From Leucoraja ocellata (lineage: Eukaryota), in contig JAWMAR010001626.1 of the NCBI GenBank assembly GCA_036785375.1, positions 62,001 through 126,000 on the forward strand: 64,000 nt of DNA, given 5' to 3'. Position 1 is the stretch's first letter. Each line of letters begins with the position of its first letter. Of the stretch, positions 1 through 39,660 are shown piece by piece. A program made the translations under genes and the position numbers. The notes beneath the pieces were generated by a model. It was not told the origin of the DNA. It searched no databases and was given only the letters and a program-made list of their open reading frames with translations.

Positions 1-305
1 TTCCACTGGCCCAAGAGCTCTATCTAACTCTCTTAAATCCATCCAGTGACTTGGCCTCCACTTCCCTCTGTGGCAGGGAATTCCACAAATTCACAACTCT
101 CTGGGTGAAAAAGTTTTTTCTCATCTCTGTCTTAAATGGCTTCCCTTTATTCTAAGACTATGGCCCCTGGTTCTGGACTCACCCAGCATTGGGAACATTT
201 TTCATACATCTACCTTGTCCCAGTTCCTTTTATAATTTTATATGTTTCTATAAGATATCCCCTCATTCTTCTAAACTCCAGTGAATACAAGCATAGTCTT
301 TTTCA
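1..305 (-). mobile_element. CR1/HER1-type LINE fragment inserted in an Ig exon (paralog of 36275-36705)
   Basis: Reverse complement of the CR1 ORF2 C-terminus (RVVNLWNSLP-type sequence); abuts Ig exon sequence at ~306. Confidence 0.85.
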
Positions 306-422
306 GTTCCCTCAGCTGACAGGGAAGGATGCTGGGGTCTATCAGTGTGTGTGGGGTCTATCAGTGTGTGGCGGAGAATGACCATGGGACAGCAGAGAGG
401 GATGTGACCCTCACTGTAGAAT
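306..422 (+). pseudogene. 3' half of a disrupted C2-set Ig pseudo-exon of the left Siglec paralog
   Basis: FPQLTGKDAGVYQCV...AENDHGTAERDVTLTVE then GTGAGT donor at 423; 19-bp tandem duplication (333-351/352-370) frameshifts it; CR1 inserted upstream. Confidence 0.9.
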
Positions 423-5493: not shown

Positions 5494-5590
5494 ATAATGG
5501 CTTCAGTATTTGGAAGGCAGTTTTGCTTACAGCAGGGATAATACTGATGGCTGTGCTAGCTGGATTCATCATCTACAAGTATATACTGCG
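5494..5590 (+). CDS. Transmembrane exon of the left Siglec-like gene
   Basis: Acceptor cttgtttttacag, donor gtaagt; phase 1 to 2; (Y)NGFSIWKAVLLTAGIILMAVLAGFIIYKYIL(R) gives a ~20-aa hydrophobic helix followed by basic residues. Confidence 0.88.
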
Positions 5591-6514: not shown

Positions 6515-6581
6515 GAGGGAAGATGCTTCAGGAAACCAAGACACCAATGTGATCTACTGCCCACACTCTGCCACCAATCAG
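6515..6581 (+). CDS. Juxtamembrane cytoplasmic exon of the left Siglec-like gene
   Basis: Acceptor ctgcag, donor gtagtg; 67 nt, phase 2 to 0, compatible with both flanking exons; REDASGNQDTNVIYCPHSATNQ; conserved in the paralog at 29028-29094. Confidence 0.8.
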
Positions 6582-7124
6582 GTAGTGGAACTTTGTATTT
6601 AATCTCAATTTAAGATGAAACAAATGTGGGTACAAAAAGCTGGAGTAACTCAGTGGAACAGGCAGAATCTCTGGAGAGAAGGAACAGGTGATGTTTCGGT
6701 CGAGACTCGAGGGGCCTGAGCTACAGGGAGAGGTTGAGGAGGCTGGGACTCTATTCCTTGGAGTGCAGGGGGATGAGGGGTGATCTTATAGATGTGTATA
6801 AAATCATGAGAGGAATAGATCGGGTAGATGCACAGAGTCTCTTGCCCAGAGTAGGGGAATCGAGGACCAGAGGACATCGGTTCAAGGTGAAGGGGGAAAA
6901 AATTTAAGGGGTTACTTTTTCACACAAAGGGTGGTGCGTGTATGGAACGAGCTGCTGGAGGAAGTAGTTCAGGCTGGGACTATCCCAACGTTTAAGAAAC
7001 AGTTAGAAAGGTACATGGACCAAGCGCAGGCAGGTGGGACTAGTGTAGCTGGACATGTTGGCCGGTGTGGGCAAGTTGGGCAGAAGGGCCTGTTTCCACA
7101 ATGGATGACTCTATATAGACGACG

Positions 7125-7470
7125 ATGTAGAGAGAGATAAAGAACAATGAATGAAAGATAGATGTAAACAAAGTAACGATGATAAAGGAAACAGGCAACT
7201 GTTAGTGGTTTGTTGGGTGAAAATGAGAAGCTGGTGCGACTTGGGTGGGGGAGGGATGGAGAGAGAGGGAACACAGGGCTACCTCAAGTGAGGGAAATCA
7301 ATGTTCATATCACTGGGCTGTAAGCTGCCCAAACGGAATATGTGATGCTGGTCCTCCAATTTGTGTTTAGCCTCACTCTGTCAATGGAGGCGACCGAGGA
7401 CAGAAAAGTCAGTGTGGGAAGGGGAATTAAAGTATTTAGCAACCGGGGGTATGAATATTGATTTATCTAA
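7125..7470 (-). mobile_element. Penelope-like element fragment (GIY-YIG C-terminus); paralog ~28120-28470
   Basis: Encodes KLEDQHHIFRLGSLQPSDMNIDF, similar to the PLE endonuclease end. Confidence 0.65.
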
Positions 7471-7873
7471 CTATGTGAGAGTGTGTGAGTGTGAGAGTGG
7501 GTGTGAGAGAGAGAGAAAGTTTGAGAGAGGGGGAGACGGGGCGAGAGAGGGAGAGAGAGAGAGTGGTTGAAAGTGCGAGTGTGAGAGACACAGTGCCTGA
7601 GTGTGAGCGAGTGAGAGAAAGAGGAGAGGGAGAAAGGGGGAGAGAGAAAGTGTGAAACTGCAAGGGAGAGGGAGAGGGAGAGGGAGAGAAAGTGAGAGAG
7701 GGGGAGAGAGAAGGAGAGCGAGAGTGTGTGAGAGGAGAACATCAACAACATGGCTGAACCTGGGTCTGTGGGAGTACAGGAGTTGTGAACCTTCTCGCTG
7801 ATGGTATTAAATGCCGGGCCACACTGCTCTGTACTAAACCCACAACTGCCCGTCTGCTTCCCTTTACTTCCAG

Positions 7874-8065
7874 AGCACGGGGAGTGGAGAGAACGGGCCG
7901 GCCCCAGTGGAGCGGAAAGAAGGAGGGGAATCAGGAGAGGGGGAAGAGCAAGCGGTCGTGTACGCCGACATGCAGGAGGTGCTGAGCAGCGGAGACACCG
8001 GGCACAGTGGCGAGGGGGTGGAATATGCGGAGCTCTGGTTCCAGTCCAAGCAGGGGAAGGGGTAG
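7874..8065 (+). CDS. Terminal cytoplasmic exon of the left Siglec-like gene with ITIM/ITIM-like motifs
   Basis: Acceptor cctttacttccag, phase 0; STGSGENGPAPVERKEGGESGEGEEQAVVYADMQEVLSSGDTGHSGEGVEYAELWFQSKQGKG*; VEYAEL fits the V/I/L/S-x-Y-x-x-L/V ITIM consensus. Confidence 0.88.
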   Translation, partial: STGSGENGPAPVERKEGGESGEGEEQAVVYADMQEVLSSGDTGHSGEGVEYAELWFQSKQGKG

Positions 8066-8321
8066 GTGGGAGGATGGAGGGAGGGGTGGTGAGGAGGGAG
8101 AGGCGATCGGGAGAGAGCGCTGCACCAGCCTTAACTACCTTGGGTTTCATAGATTAATTAACCCTCTGTAGATGAAATAGTGGGATAACATAGAACTAGT
8201 GTGTGAACGGATGACCGATGGTCGGTGCGGACTCGGTGGGCTGAAGGGCCTGTTTCCCCGCTGTATCTCTTTAAAAAAGCCTTTGTTCTTTAGAACCCAG
8301 ACTGTTCCGCGGGTAACTATT

Positions 8322-10953
8322 GATTTTTTTGATTTTTTTAAAAGAATAGAATAAGAAAACGAAGTTAGATAGTAAAGGATAGAAAGATGTGAAATATATA
8401 GCGTGTGAAGAAAGAAAACGAGTAAATGAAGAAAGTTGAGAGAGAAAATAGAGAAAAGAAAAGAAAATAAAAAAAGAAAAGGAGATCATTATTTATAATC
8501 TTGACCAACCCTCGTCCAGTCCTGAAACAGTTATTTTTTACAATTGTGTTGCACCATATGATTCCAAAAAAACGACGAATGGAGACCAACTCGTTATGAA
8601 TTGGTCTGATTTATCCATTAGGAGGAATCGCATTTCCTCAAGATGAGCGGTGTGCAACATACTTGCAATCCACATTTTAAGCGTTGGTATTGATGTACCC
8701 TTCCAAAATTTAAGTATTAATTTTTTTGCTATTATTAAACCATAGTTAAGGAATAGATTTTGAGATGTGTTCAATTTATTCCCATCTTCCATTACACCAA
8801 ATATAATCATTTCAGTATTAGGTTCCATTCTTGTCTTGAATAATTTTGTAAATATTTCAAAAATATCATTCCAAAATCTATAAAGTTTTATGCAGGAAAC
8901 TAAGGAGTGTGTTTTATAGTTGCCTTTTGGGCTAGACATTTATCACAAGTGGCGGATATATTTGGATAAAATTTGTTCAATCTTGTTTTTGAATAATATA
9001 ATCTATGTACAATTTTAAATTGTATTACATTATGTCTTACATTAATTGAACATTTGTGAATATATATCAGGTATTTTTCCCATTTAACCTTAGTAATTTT
9101 TATCATTAGTTCCCGTTCCCACTCTTCTCTAAGTACCTCTGTCGATGGTAGGTCTATATTTAGAATACTATTATATAAATATGATATTAATTTTTGTGAG
9201 TCAGCTTCAATATTCATTGCTTCTTCCAATGTCAGGAGTTACTTTTTGATATCCTTGTACAGGTACAGGTATATATTTTTTCACAAAGTCGCAAATCTGA
9301 AGATATTTAAAATATTGGTTGTTTTTCAATTTAAATTTTAATTGTAGTTGTTAGAATGATAGTAGGTTTCCCATTTCGTACATATCCCCGATCCTTCTAA
9401 TTCCGAGACTTTCCGATTGGTTATATGTTTTATCAATAAGAGATGGTTTAAATAAAGGGTTATTCGCAATTGGCATTAACAGTGATAGATTTCTTAATTT
9501 TAAAGATAATTTTATTTGTTTCGAAATTCTTATTGTACCATATATAATTGGGTTCTTCTTATATATTGTGTTATTCCGGTTTTTTGGGGAAAAGAGGATC
9601 GTTCCTATATTACAAGGATGGCAATCCTCCTTCTCCATTTTTATCCATTCTTTCTGTTGGGTAGAACTATCCAACCAATAAATCATATTCTTAATATGCA
9701 CTGCCCAGTAATAATACATAAAATTCGGAAGTGAATTTCGAAAGTGAAAGTCCCCCGACCTCTTTTGGTTTACATAAGTGTTTTTTTGTGATTCTATGTG
9801 ATCTATAGTCCCAAATATAATTTGTAATGTTAGAGACTAATTTTTTTTAAAAATATTTTGGTATATATACCGGTATAGACTGAAATACGTATAGTAATTG
9901 TGGTAGGAAGATCATTTTTATTGCATTTATTCTACCTAATAATGATAAGGGAAGTGCTTTACAAAATTTAATCAGCGTATTAAGTTTATTTAATAAAGGT
10001 ATGAAATTAGCGTTGAATAATGCTTTATATTTTCTAGTAATCTGAATACCCAAATATTTAAATTTTTCTGTTGCGATTTTAGAGGGGAACTTCAATAAGT
10101 GTGTAGGTTCTTGAGGTTTTAATGTCATGATTTCACTTTTGTTCCAGTTTATTCTATATCCAGAAAAAGATCCAAATTCCTCTATTAAGTTTAATAAATT
10201 TGGTATGCTTGTTTGTGACTTTGTAATGTATAAACGTATATCGTCTGCATATAATGAGATTTTATTCTTTGCGTCCCTGGTATTATAGCCCTGAATATTC
10301 GGATGAATTCTTATACTTTCAGCCAGGGGTTCTATCATAAGGGCAAATAGCAGGGGTGATAGTGCACATCCCTGCCTATTACCCCTTGATAGTTTACATT
10401 TTTGAGATAACATGTTATTAGTTAAAATTCTTGCCATCGGTTTATCATATAATAATTTTACCCATGTTATAAAATTCCCATATTAAATTTTTGTAGTACT
10501 TTACATAAGTATTGCCACTCTACCTGATCAAATGCTTTCTCTGCATCCAAAGAAATAATTGATATATCTTCTTCCTCTACTTTATGCGAGTACATTATAT
10601 TAAACAGGCGTCTCAGATTATTAAATGAGTATCTTTTAGGTATAAACACCGTTTGATCAGGGTTTATCAATTTACTAATATATTTGCTTAATCTTCTTGC
10701 TAAAATCTTTGCTAAAATTTTCTGATCTGTATTTAAAAGTGATATAGCTCTGTACGAGCCCGGATCTTCTAAATCTTTATCTTTTTTTTGGAATAAGCGT
10801 AATAGTTGATTCTGTTAGTAGTTTGTTTTCTTTAAAAGCATGGGAGTATAAATTAAATAAATAAGGGGTCGTTATCTCCTGAATTTTTTTAATAAAATTC
10901 ATTATTAAAACCATCTGGTCCCGGTGTCTTACCATTTTTCAGCGATTTTATTG
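8322..10953 (-). mobile_element. 5'-truncated L1 LINE (ORF2 RT and C-terminus), left-arm specific
   Basis: RT motifs SLDAEKAFD, RQGCALSPLLF, YADD; A-rich 3' end; 11-bp TSD GGGTAACTATT (8311-8321/10954-10964); empty site near 27270. Confidence 0.92.
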
Positions 10954-29027: not shown

Positions 29028-29094
29028 CTGATTGGTGGCAGATTGTGGGCAGTAGATCACATTGTTGTCTGGGTTCCCTGAAGCATCTTCCCTC
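29028..29094 (-). CDS. 67-nt exon of the right Siglec-like gene; supplies a junction TGA when spliced to the C2 exon
   Basis: Intact AG/GT; ancestral frame REDASGNPDNNVIYCPQSATNQ; begins GAG, so upstream phase-1 T plus GA gives TGA. Confidence 0.7.
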
Positions 29095-29261
29095 CTGCAG
29101 CAAAGGAAGATCACACCAAGTGTACAGCACATCAGCAAAGTACAAGTATAAAGTTGCAGTTGTATTAGACGTTGGTCATAAAGTCGTGAGGTTATTAATG
29201 ATAGTAGCAGAATTAAGTCATTCGGCCCATCAAGTCTACTCTGCCATTCAATCATGGCTGA

Positions 29262-30225
29262 TACATAGAAACATTGTCATATGTTGATAAAATGAAGCTG
29301 CTGGGCTTGTATAGAAACATAGAAAAATAGAAATTAGGTGCAGGAGTAGGCCATTCGGCCCTTCGAGCCTGCACCGCCATTCAATATGATCATGGCTGAT
29401 CATCCAACTCAGTATCCCGTACCTGCCTTCTCTCCATACCCCCTGATCCCCTTAGCCACAAGGGCCACATCTAACTCCCTCTTAAATATAGCCAATGAAC
29501 AGGCCTCAACTACCCTCTGTGCAGAGAGTTCCAGAGATTCACCACTCTCTGTGTGAAAAAAGTTCTTCTCATCTCGGTTTTAAAGGATTTCCCCCTTATC
29601 CTTAAGCTGTGACCCCTTGTCCTGGACTTCCCTAACATCGGGAACAATCTTCCTGCATCTAGCCTGTCCAACCCCTTAAGAATTTTGTAAGTTTCTATAA
29701 GATCCCCTCTCAATCTCCTAAATTCTAGAGAGTATAAACCAAGTCTATCCAGTCTTTCTTCATAAGACAGTCCTGACATCCCAGGAATCAGTCTGGTGAA
29801 CCGTCTCTGCACTCCCTCTATGGCAATAATGTCCTTCCTCAGATTTGGAGACCAAAACTGTACGCAATACTCCATGTGTGGTCTCACCAAGACCCTGTAC
29901 AACTGCAGTAGAACCTCCCTGCTCCTATACTCAAATCCTTTTGCAATGAAAGCTAACATACCATTCGCTTTCTTTACTGCCTGCTGCACCTGCATGCCTA
30001 CCTTCAATGACTGGTGTACCATGACACCCAGGTCTCGCTGCATCTCCCCCTTTCCCAATCGGCGACCATTTAGATAATAGTCTGCTTTCCCGTTTTTGCC
30101 ACCAAAATGGATAACCTCACATTTATCCACATTATACTGCATCTGCAAACGTTTGCCAACTCACCCAGCCTATCCAAGTCACCTTGCAGTCCTCCTCACA
30201 GCTAACACTGCCCCCCAGCTTAGTG
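29262..30225 (-). mobile_element. Young CR1/HER1 LINE 3' ~950 bp occupying the place of the deleted TM-exon region
   Basis: 212-aa ORF MQYNVDKCEVIHFG...RDLGV...RVLVRPHMEYCVQFWSP; (TTTCTATG)n tail; flanks map to left-arm 6345 and 3250. Confidence 0.92.
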
Positions 30226-31014
30226 TCTATTTCCTTCGCTCCATAGATGCTGCCTCACCCGCTGAGTTTCTCCAGCATTGTCTGCTCCAGCATTTTGTGT
30301 CTATCTTCAGTAAACGGGACTGATCCAAGAACTCCGAGGCTCTGTACAAGAAGGGACAGAGCTTTCTGAGAAGGCTCTGCTCCATCAACATCTGCAGCAA
30401 GAAGCTGCAGATGTTCTACTAATCGGTGGTGGCCAGTGCCATCTTCTTCACTGCCGTGTGCCGGGGCAACAGGGCGAAGGCTGCAGACGTCAATGGGATC
30501 AACAAGCTCATCAGGAAGGCCGGCTCCATCCTGGGGGCGGAGTTGGATTCACAGTAGGTTGGTCTAGGAGGGGAGGATGGAGCTGTGGAGCATCCTGGAC
30601 AATACAGCTCAACCCCTCCGTGACACATTGGTCAACCAGAGGAGCACATTCAGCAACAGACTGGTTCCACACAGATGCAGCACAGAACGCCACAGGAGAT
30701 CCTTCTTCCCTGTGGCTATCAAACAGTACAACTCCTCCCCCTTCTGTCGTAGTGTAGACTGAGACTGACTCGCCTCCCCACCACCCCCCTCCCACGTAAT
30801 CTTTGCACAGCCCCCAAGCCTTTCCACTCGTCACTTTAATTTCATATTTAAAGTATTTTGTGTTTGTGTATTTTGTGTATTTAGTTCTCTCCTGGGATAT
30901 ATAAAGTTCTATTGTGTCGTATCGTATTGTAAAAGTTGCCCCGCACATCTCCTTTACAATTTTCCCCTCTCACCTTAGAGCTCTGCCCTCTCAACCTTGA
31001 CATTTGCACCATGT

Positions 31015-31920
31015 TAGCAGTGTTAGCTGTGAGGAGGATGCTAGGAGACTGCAAGGTGACTTGGATAGGCTGGGTGAGTGGGCAAATGTTTGGCAGATGC
31101 AGTATAATGTAGATAAATGTGAGGTTATCCATTTTGGTGGCGGAAAACAGGAAAGCAGACTATTATCTAAATGGTGGCCGACTAGGAAAAGGGGAGATGC
31201 AGCGAGACCTGGGTGTCATGGTACACCAGTCATTGAAAGTAGGCATGCAGGTGCAGCAGGCAGTGAAGTAAGCGAATGGTATGTTAGCTTTCATAGCAAA
31301 AGGATTTGAGTATAAGAGCAGGGAGGTTCTACTGCAGTTGTACAGGGTCTTGGTGAGACCACACCTGGAGTATTGCGTTTTTGGTCTCCAAATCTGAGGA
31401 AGGACATTATTGCCATAGAGGGAGTGCAGAGAAGGTTCACCAGACTGATTCCTGGGATGTCAGGACTGTCTTATGAAGAAAGACTGGATAGACTTGGTTT
31501 ATACTCTCTAGAATTTAGGAGATTGAGAGGGGATCTTATAGAAACTTACAAAATTCTTAAGGGGTTGGACAGGCTAGATGCAGTAAGATTGCTCCCGATG
31601 TTGGGGAAGTCCAGGACAAGGGGTCACAGCTTAAGGATAAGGGGGAAATCCTTTAAAACCGAGATGAGAAGAACTTTTTTCACACAGAGAGTGGTGAATC
31701 TCTGGAACTCTCTGCCACAGAGGGTAGTTGAGGCTAGTTCATTGGCTATATTTAAGAGGGAGTTAGATGTGGCCCTTGTGGCTAAGGGGATCAGAGGGTA
31801 TGGAGAGAAGGCAGGTACGGGATACTGAGTTGGATGATCAGCCATGATCATATTGAATGGCGGTGCAGGCTCGAAGGGCCGAATGGCCTACTCCTGCACC
31901 TAATTTCTATGTTTCTATGT
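31015..31920 (+). mobile_element. Young CR1/HER1 LINE 3' ~900 bp, right-arm specific
   Basis: Near-identical to 29262-30225; empty site TTTTTCACATGGTGC at ~2450; ATGT at both junctions. Confidence 0.92.
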
Positions 31921-33378
31921 GAAAAAGATTCTGACTTCTCAATGCAACTCATAGTTTTATATATTTCTATCAGGTCTCCCCCTCAGCCTTCCAATGGGTG
32001 GTGAATCTGTGGAATTCTTTGCCACAGACGGCAGTGGAGGCCAAGTCAGTGGTTATATTTAAGGCAGAGATAGATTCTTCATTAGTACGGGTGTCAGAGG
32101 CTATGGAGTGAAGGCAGGGGAATGGGGCAGGGGAGGGAGAAATACATCAGCCATGATCGAATGGCAGAGTATACTTGATGGGCCAAAAGGCCTTATTGTG
32201 CTCCCATCACTTGTGAACATGAACTCCAGAGAAAGTCTATCCAACCTCTTCTTTAGTTTAGTTTAGAGATACAGCGCGGAAACAGGCCCTTCGGCCCACC
32301 GTGTCCACGCCTGCCAGCGATCCCCACACATATACTATCCTGCACACACTAGGGACAATTTACAAATATACCAAGCCAATTAACCTGCACACCTGTATAT
32401 CTTTGGAGTGTGGGAGGAAACCGGAGCACCCGAAGAAAACCCACGTAGGTTATGGGATGAACTTGCCAACTCCGTACCGACAAGCACCCGTAGTGAGGAT
32501 TCAACCTGGCTCTCTGGTGCTGTGAGGCAGCAACTCTACCGTTGAACCATTGTGTGCCCCCCTTGAAACTCCTTATTGCTAATACTCTCTAAACTAGGCA
32601 GCGTTGTGCACCCTGACCACATCCTTCCTGTAATGGGGTGACCAGAACTGCACACAATGCTTCAAATAATTTTATCTAAACTTCCTTATCTTAGAAGAGG
32701 AGAGAGGAAATATAGGAAGTATGTTGTCAAGCAGGAAAGGGTGCAGCGAAGATTCATGAGGATGTGGCCAGGACTAGAGGGCCTGAGCTATAGGGAAAGG
32801 TTGAGCAGGCTGGGACTCTCTTTCTTGGAGAACAGGGGGATGAGGAGTGCTCTTATAGAGGTGTTTATAATCATGAGAGGAATAGATCGGGTAGATGCAC
32901 CAAGTCTATTGCCCAGAGTAGGTGAATCGACGACCAGAGGACATAGGTTCAAGGTGAAGGGGAAATTATTTAAACGGAACCTGGGCGGTGACTTTTTCAT
33001 ACAAAGGCTGGTTGTTGTATGGAATGAGCTGCCAGAGGAGGTCGCTGAGGCTGGGACTATCCCAGCGTTTAAGAAACAGACAAGTACATGGTTAGGGCAA
33101 GTTTGGAGGGATATGGGCCAAACATGGGCAGGTTGGACTAATGTAGCTGGGACATGTAGGTTGTTGAAAGCAAGTTGAGCAGTTCCCACGCTGTATCACT
33201 CTATGAATCAATGGCTCTATAGCTCTATGGCTCTATGAGAAGGCAGGAGAATGGGGTTAGGAGGGAGAGATAGATCAGCCATGATTGAATGGTGCAGTAG
33301 ATTTGACCATTCAACATTCTAATTCTGCCCCTATCATTTATGACGTTGTGAGGGATGTGTTAGTGTGTGTCTACTCAC

Positions 33379-33660
33379 ATTCTACAGTGAGGGTCACATC
33401 CCTCTCTGCTGTCCCGTGTTCATTCACCGCCACACACTGATAGACCCCAGCGTCCTGCCATGCCAGCTGAGGGAACTCCAACCACAGCTCGTTGCTGGAA
33501 TATGTTGTGTTCAGCGTGACACCAAGATGTATCCACGTCAGGTTAGATGCTGGGAAACTCTGAACGGAGCAGAGGATCGCTGCAAAGTTTCCTTCCTTTA
33601 CAATCACCCGGGAACTGTTCGCATCGGCGTGGGAAGTGATTGAGAGATTTCGTGGAGCAT
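33379..33660 (-). CDS. Siglec-like gene, intact C2-set Ig exon
   Basis: ttgtctttag/gtgagt, 282 nt, phase 1-1; YAPRNLSI...VKEGNFAAILCSVQSFPASNLTW...DAGVYQCVAVNEHGTAERDVTLTVE. Confidence 0.93.
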
Positions 33661-39223: not shown

Positions 39224-39359
39224 CTGAGGAGAGAAGGAACAATCTTTAGCAGTGAACACCCTGTCCGTTCACTGGACTTTCCACACCGTTTATCCTGTGC
39301 TGTGGACCCGGTGTGAACAGAGCGTAGAAGAGCAGCATGATGGCGTAGTGGTAGAGTCT

Positions 39360-39660
39360 CCCTCCTCAACGCCCCTCCCCCAGTGCATCACTCCCTCCTC
39401 ACCGCCCCTCCCCCAATGCATCACTCCTCCTCACCGCCCCTCCCCCAATGCATCACTCCCTCCGCACCGCCCCTCTCCCAGTGCATCACTCCCTCCTCAC
39501 CGCCCCTCCCACAGTGCATCACTCCCTCCGCACCGCCCCTCCCCCAATGCATCACTCCCTCCTCACCGCCCCTCCCCCAGTGCATCACTCCCTCCTCACC
39601 GCCCCTCCCCCAGTGCATCACTCCCTCCTCACCGCCCCTCCCCCAGTGCATCACTCCCCG
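39360..39660. repeat. 33-bp minisatellite, ~9 copies, in a Siglec intron
   Basis: Unit CAGTGCATCACTCCCTCCTCACCGCCCCTCCCC. Confidence 0.95.

Follow-up and report, generated by a model that had tools for sequence, protein, structure and literature searches.

A Siglec-family gene without a transmembrane exon in a skate gene cluster, and the likely role of LINE recombination in its origin

The stretch of DNA analysed here (hereafter the window) comprises 64,000 nt of a contig of the skate Leucoraja ocellata (JAWMAR010001626.1, C1626:62001-126000, within a 3.44-Gb assembly) and is free of any N. It carries two related genes whose 3′ ends face each other: gene B on the reverse strand and, on the forward strand, the 3′ portion of paralog A. 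As judged from its sequence, gene B is a Siglec-family gene by descent, which has lost its transmembrane (TM) exon from the genome, likely through unequal recombination between two long interspersed nuclear element (LINE) copies. Five further copies share this loss, and we somewhat favor the view that this TM-less clade is a near-neutral by-product of birth-and-death evolution in the skate Siglec cluster, and not a selected decoy.

Gene B and the deletion of its transmembrane exon

The features of gene B and of its C2b-cy1 intron are as follows (window coordinates):
39730-39691 (40 nt), minus strand: coding portion of the exon for the signal peptide, MIGRSFFVLSLLQ; acceptor at ~39771
39223-38861 (363 nt), minus strand: V-set exon, MAG/sialoadhesin-like, with Arg114 (38924-38922) and Tyr123 kept and Ser20 encoded by TCG (39206-39204)
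38171-37878 (294 nt), minus strand: C2a exon, encoding a CD33-like second domain that includes the inter-domain Cys163
36888-36177, minus strand: dead C2b copy, interrupted by a LINE fragment and with donor TT, presumably skipped; common to most paralogs
33660-33379 (282 nt), minus strand: C2b exon, the last immunoglobulin (Ig) exon, ending GTA GAA T
31017-31920, plus strand (antisense to gene B): LINE fragment Y, a 95.6% inverted copy of Z, not present at the corresponding position in paralog C478:169k
29317-30227, minus strand: hybrid LINE Z, whose 5′ flank is that of the TM-bearing locus C428:121k and whose 3′ flank is that of the TM-bearing locus C478:70k, a mark of recombination
29094-29028 (67 nt), minus strand: first cytoplasmic exon (cy1), starting GA G, its first two bases completing TGA
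27706-27520, minus strand: last exon (cy2), formerly encoding an ITIM (immunoreceptor tyrosine-based inhibitory motif), now 3′ untranslated region; starts AG

All four coding exons have AG/GT ends, and the position of the signal-exon acceptor suggests a non-coding 5′ exon farther upstream. When spliced, they form a 326-aa frame ending DVTLTVE*, with the TGA stop at the C2b|cy1 joint (T|GA), while read-through of the C2b donor into the intron gives VECE*. These exon lengths, the frame, the joint and both endings had been described in an earlier reading made from the letters of the window alone (the sequence-only reading), and all were re-derived here. The signal-V intron of gene B also contains a tandem repeat (unit ~33 nt, window 39355-39660), the length of which varies among copies.

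Nothing in gene B corresponds to paralog A's TM exon (5494-5590): the best short-word matches to it measure 9-18 nt, and none is longer. The sequence-only reading had allowed for splicing to an unrecognized TM exon, or for a TM exon missing from the assembly only. The loss itself stands as a genuine genomic event: the same intron recurs in six diverged copies spread over four contigs, which makes an assembly artefact very unlikely, and the gene B intron holds neither N nor TM homology. In favor of a hidden or unassembled exon, a scan of the C2b-cy1 intron for AG..GT-bounded in-frame segments returned one at 30615 with a top hydropathy of 1.92, and the cluster is repeat-rich. Yet this segment sits within a decayed repeat, and both LINE contexts that would be parental to the deletion are present in the genome, such that we consider a hidden or unassembled TM exon highly improbable.

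These parental contexts suggest how the exon was lost. At C428:121k, the LINE-Z 5′ junction and its LINE lie upstream of the TM exon, and from Z the sequence continues for ~6 kb including this exon. At C478:70k, a longer LINE copy in the same direction lies downstream of the TM exon, between it and cy1, and its 3′ flank matches that of gene B. The two LINE copies are 98% identical, and unequal recombination between such same-direction copies would have removed ~6 kb including the TM exon. This is likely the simplest cause of the loss, although diagnostic sites within Z are mixed and do not place the crossover. The LINE-Z 5′ junction itself (30229) was rejected as the deletion breakpoint, because C428:121k has this junction as well as a TM exon.

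The exact junction occurs nine times, and two other carriers lack the TM exon through separate events: at C2094:90k, the Z tail is joined to a similar tail before cy1, and at C1051:246k the deletion takes cy1 too. In both, V exons are deleted or interrupted. Because these two loci lost their TM exon independently of gene B's clade, TM loss is recurrent in this repeat-rich intron. The same intron holds Y and Z as an inverted pair (31017-31920 and 29317-30227; 95.6% over 900 nt), which could form a duplex in the pre-mRNA, and exon skipping driven by this pair before the deletion is possible.

A TM-less clade and a family-wide junction stop

The six TM-less copies (gene B, C1626:184k, C1051:194k, C1051:369k, C478:293k and C2127:121k) share a 4.3-kb C2b-cy1 intron with substitution distances of 0.14-1.5%, and form one branch in the cy1 tree (support 100/98); the V-exon tree, from which one 5′-truncated V was excluded, leaves this clade unresolved. 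Gene B and the C2127 copy are 99.7% identical over 14 kb upstream, and C1051:194k and C478:293k are about 0.2% apart, hence these may represent two allelic pairs, which would leave about four distinct loci that include two same-contig pairs. In the copy at C1626:158900-184300, a 4.9-kb unit comprising a partial C2a, a dead C2b and a C2b occurs four times. Faster decay of the tail exons in TM-less copies was considered and rejected, as the old cy2 frame is intact in four of six while several TM-bearing loci are frameshifted too.

The sequence-only reading presented the stop as created by the TM loss, a claim that is not borne out in any special sense, because the exon ends concerned are family-wide and older than the loss. 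A terminal T was found in 50 of 50 full-length C2 exons examined, where it begins the Tyr codon with which the next domain opens, all 41 cy1 exons start with GA, and nearly all cy2 exons start with AG. Any loss or skipping of the TM exon in this family thus stops the protein at this codon, and skipping of cy1 in gene B, which joins C2b to cy2 (27706), does so as well (T|AG). The T|GA coincidence is therefore automatic and uninformative on selection in gene B. Loss of an upstream AG forcing the use of the GA acceptor was also rejected, as most paralogs likewise lack that AG.

Predicted protein and sialic-acid site

The predicted 326-aa protein has a hydrophobic N-terminus, a maximum later hydropathy of 1.14, eight Cys and six N-glycan sequons. 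The signal peptide, the absence of a hydrophobic anchor and the Siglec identity proposed in the sequence-only reading are all borne out for this open frame: the domain order is that of Siglecs, an N-terminal V-set followed by C2-type Ig domains (Pfam V-set, C2-set_2, I-set), and the best matches among solved structures are Siglecs, with MAG (E=1.5e-17) and sialoadhesin (2.3e-17) for the V domain and CD33 (4.7e-8) for C2a. Arg114 aligns with the essential F-strand Arg of sialoadhesin (Arg97) and MAG, and Tyr123 with the G-strand aromatic (sialoadhesin Trp106; Trp106/Tyr127 position), with residue numbering taken from PMC13086771 and PMC5150538. C35, C40, C96, C157, C163 and C214 align with Cys of MAG, sialoadhesin and CD33, which suggests that the B-E intra-sheet and V-to-C2 inter-domain disulfides form.

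Gene B departs from these membrane proteins in two respects. The membrane anchor with its signaling tail is gone, the TM exon being deleted and the tail exons lying behind the stop and out of frame, and the A-strand aromatic (sialoadhesin Trp2, MAG W22) is replaced by Ser20. In all 62 database relatives covering this region (four of 66 lack it), the first V domain has the Trp, while two later V domains, from ray proteins, have Ser there. Within the genome itself, 19 of 29 V loci have the Trp and eight have Ser; these are all six TM-less copies plus two loci for which the 3′ end falls outside the available sequence. Trp2, Arg97 and Trp106 are named as especially critical for Siglec-1 binding (PMC13086771; PMC10243309), yet the contacts listed for MAG are R118, Y65, Y127 and T128, and mannosylation of W22 brought no gain in binding (PMC5150538). 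Weakened sialic-acid binding of the gene B protein through the Trp-to-Ser change is thus likely but not certain.

Several paralog V exons (e.g., C478:36663, C1278:48528) include a WxxW motif like the C-mannosylation site of MAG, which the TM-less clade lost by the same change. The essential Arg is a Lys in three TM-bearing loci (C1278:127225, C2500:55967, C2559:50956).

By-product or decoy

Broadly, a young gene B spliced as drawn would encode a secreted three-Ig ectodomain, likely at a low level, and reduced binding together with partial nonsense-mediated decay (NMD) of its mRNA would make it near-neutral. The stop lies 65 nt before the last junction, just above the 50-55 nt limit, as the sequence-only reading had cautioned; this rule is canonical, although not sufficient alone (PMC4770240). 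As the cy1 acceptor is intact, the NMD-prone form would be the default, and the gene B mRNA would probably be partly degraded. A cy1-skipping T|AG form or an intron-terminated VECE* form would escape, and the C2b-cy1 intron has one ATTAAA (30840) and no AATAAA as polyadenylation signals.

Expression was evaluated on the C2b-cy1 stretch with 1-5% of the reads of three raw RNA runs and with one contig set, which may come from species other than that of the window (the best set shares 0.58 of words). Depth was 0-3 on the C2b and cy1 exons, with reads heaped on repeats, and no C2b-cy1 joint was found among the 15 shown of 298 joints in these partly read sets. Paralog reads would have mapped too, so the family is close to silent in these libraries. 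A run-level search listed no RNA set carrying the sequence, which speaks neither for nor against expression. Together with the high pseudogene rate of the cluster, this near-zero depth in all four sets would fit a clade of fully silent pseudogenes spread passively by unequal crossover. We find this improbable: the splice sites and upstream region of gene B are intact, and paralogs at least 94% alike are equally silent in the same libraries, which makes the RNA test uninformative on gene B specifically.

The genomic context is one of rapid turnover. Searches of the genome returned at least 61 TM, 69 cy1 and 102 V first-look candidates (40 of each were scored), on contigs including C478, C428, C1051, C1278, C1626, C2094, C2127 and C2559, with V exons far more diverse than C2 or TM exons. 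The skate Siglec cluster is, on these counts, very large and fast-turning, with 60-plus genes. Across the 1.38 Mb fetched around exon matches, a targeted and non-random sample, 34 of 41 cy1 exons have a TM exon upstream and seven have none. Automatic models of the 29 loci with a signal exon, three of them incomplete, gave an intact frame in 7/18 TM-bearing and 4/8 TM-less loci.

A functional secreted Siglec, i.e., a gene-level decoy like LILRA3 or soluble Siglec-14, is a tentative alternative that we hold to be rather unlikely. It would compete for ligand with inhibitory and candidate activating paralogs, or neutralize microbes exploiting them, and would escape NMD through cy1 skipping, intronic polyadenylation or closeness to the 50-55 nt limit. 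The signal peptide, all eight Cys, Arg114 and the six sequons are indeed kept in a frame with no hydrophobic anchor, both downstream junctions and the read-through reach a stop within two codons, and the cluster also has receptors with an ITIM as well as an Arg-TM type lacking the distal one. Against such a decoy, these stops are inherited from family exon ends and did not evolve for the purpose, the binding site has the Trp-to-Ser change, the C2b-cy1 joint was absent from the RNA joints seen, and the intron offers the lone ATTAAA. Nor is there an excess of synonymous change: variable codons among five TM-less copies include 8 synonymous and 13 nonsynonymous (neutral expectation ~5 and 16; P=0.12), and the neutral chance of four copies staying open is ~0.28 as estimated from intron rates.

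Other observations weigh against the by-product reading and for a decoy. The codon and open-frame tests, which gave no signal of selection, have little power on copies this young. The clade was amplified to about four loci, and its 326-aa frame is open in four copies, i.e., four of the five readable (the C2127 copy, with N over part of its C2 region, was left out of this scoring). The fifth, C1626:184k, has a 1-nt deletion only in the last of its four C2b repeats, and some of the broken-frame calls may be assembly errors or bypassed by exon skipping. From signal exon to cy2, copies diverge by 0.3-2.3% per kb vs. 3-4% in their upstream flanks, which indicates that this block is homogenized or spread as one unit, and at least 12 kb upstream of gene B are colinear with intact paralogs. 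Anchorless forms also appear to recur in three other skates: seven skate models terminate in VECE*, and in Rhinoraja longicauda a single RefSeq gene yields isoforms with the ends TLTVE* and TLTVEST*, all being automatic models that may be truncated.

Skate proteins are the closest named relatives of the gene B V exon, at up to 78% (Amblyraja radiata) and 72% (Leucoraja erinacea). CD33-like/MAG-like RefSeq models (A. radiata P0007, P0016 = XP_032868304.1; R. longicauda XP_078287860.1/XP_078287859.1; L. erinacea XP_055487246.1) have the same exon architecture and a signal peptide, and unlike gene B they keep the A-strand Trp. The V domains of P0007, P0016, P0035 and P0049 are 60-78% identical to that of gene B; in P0007 the TM and ITIM tail are those of paralog A, P0016 and P0035 terminate in VECE*, and P0049 in TLTVE*. 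Overall, a TM is absent by hydropathy in 25 of 66 database matches, again automatic models that may be truncated.

Known soluble receptors offer partial parallels. Human soluble Siglec-14, which is reported to damp signaling by the membrane form, arises by retention of intron 5 with the TM exon kept in the gene (PMC8787094); the predicted gene B ectodomain similarly ends a few residues past the last Ig domain, but its TM exon is deleted from the genome. Human LILRA3 (and LAIR2) are soluble, lack TM and tail, and have as cluster neighbors Ig receptors of both the inhibitory and the Arg-TM activating kind (PMC8562567). Gene B likewise lacks a TM at the gene level and has inhibitory and charged-TM members beside it in its cluster, although it belongs to another receptor family, and the LILRA3 protein is demonstrated whereas that of gene B is predicted.

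The skate cluster also contains another TM type, 100 nt long and with an Arg near the start of the helix, at C2500:68783, C2559:3875, C428:276943, C428:285287, C478:1436651 and C2127:20903. Where read (C2500, C428:281k, C478:1439k), its last exon is cut before the distal ITIM (..HSGEQSH*), which makes these loci putative activating counterparts of the ITIM-type Siglecs.

It is tempting to speculate, by analogy with LILR/KIR, on a skate Siglec triad: receptors with an ITIM, activating ones with an Arg-TM, and a gene-encoded clade dedicated to secretion, a soluble decoy born of LINE-LINE recombination, block-amplified and retuned by the Trp-to-Ser change. We think this doubtful. If true, the family exon ends (T|GA, T|AG, T|GT GAG TAG) would make every TM loss a clean soluble ectodomain, and paired-receptor clusters with decoys would have arisen independently from Siglecs. 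The soluble Siglecs in the papers cited arise by splicing of a membrane gene, and a cartilaginous fish with a gene-encoded secreted clade would offer a parallel to LILRA3. Neither an expansion of skate Siglecs nor a secreted Siglec encoded at the gene level was the subject of any paper found in the literature covered, which included an excerpt of PMC8455134 and few subscription journals. Even if gene B is neutral, as we favor, the locus records a Siglec cluster of 60-plus genes with recurrent repeat-driven TM loss, in which both recombination parents are still present.

Neighboring paralog A, on the plus strand of the window, has the following features:
1-421, plus strand: LINE-split dead C2b
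5494-5590, plus strand: TM exon, of an intact 350-aa V-C2a-TM-ITIM receptor lying tail to tail with gene B
6515-6581 (cy1) and 7874-8065 (cy2), spanning 6515-8065, plus strand: cytoplasmic exons, with motifs VVYADM and VEYAEL

Without an intact C2b, paralog A encodes a two-Ig, CD33-like receptor. Directly 3′ of it lies an AT-rich L1-like insertion (window 8320-10950), with none at the corresponding place of gene B.

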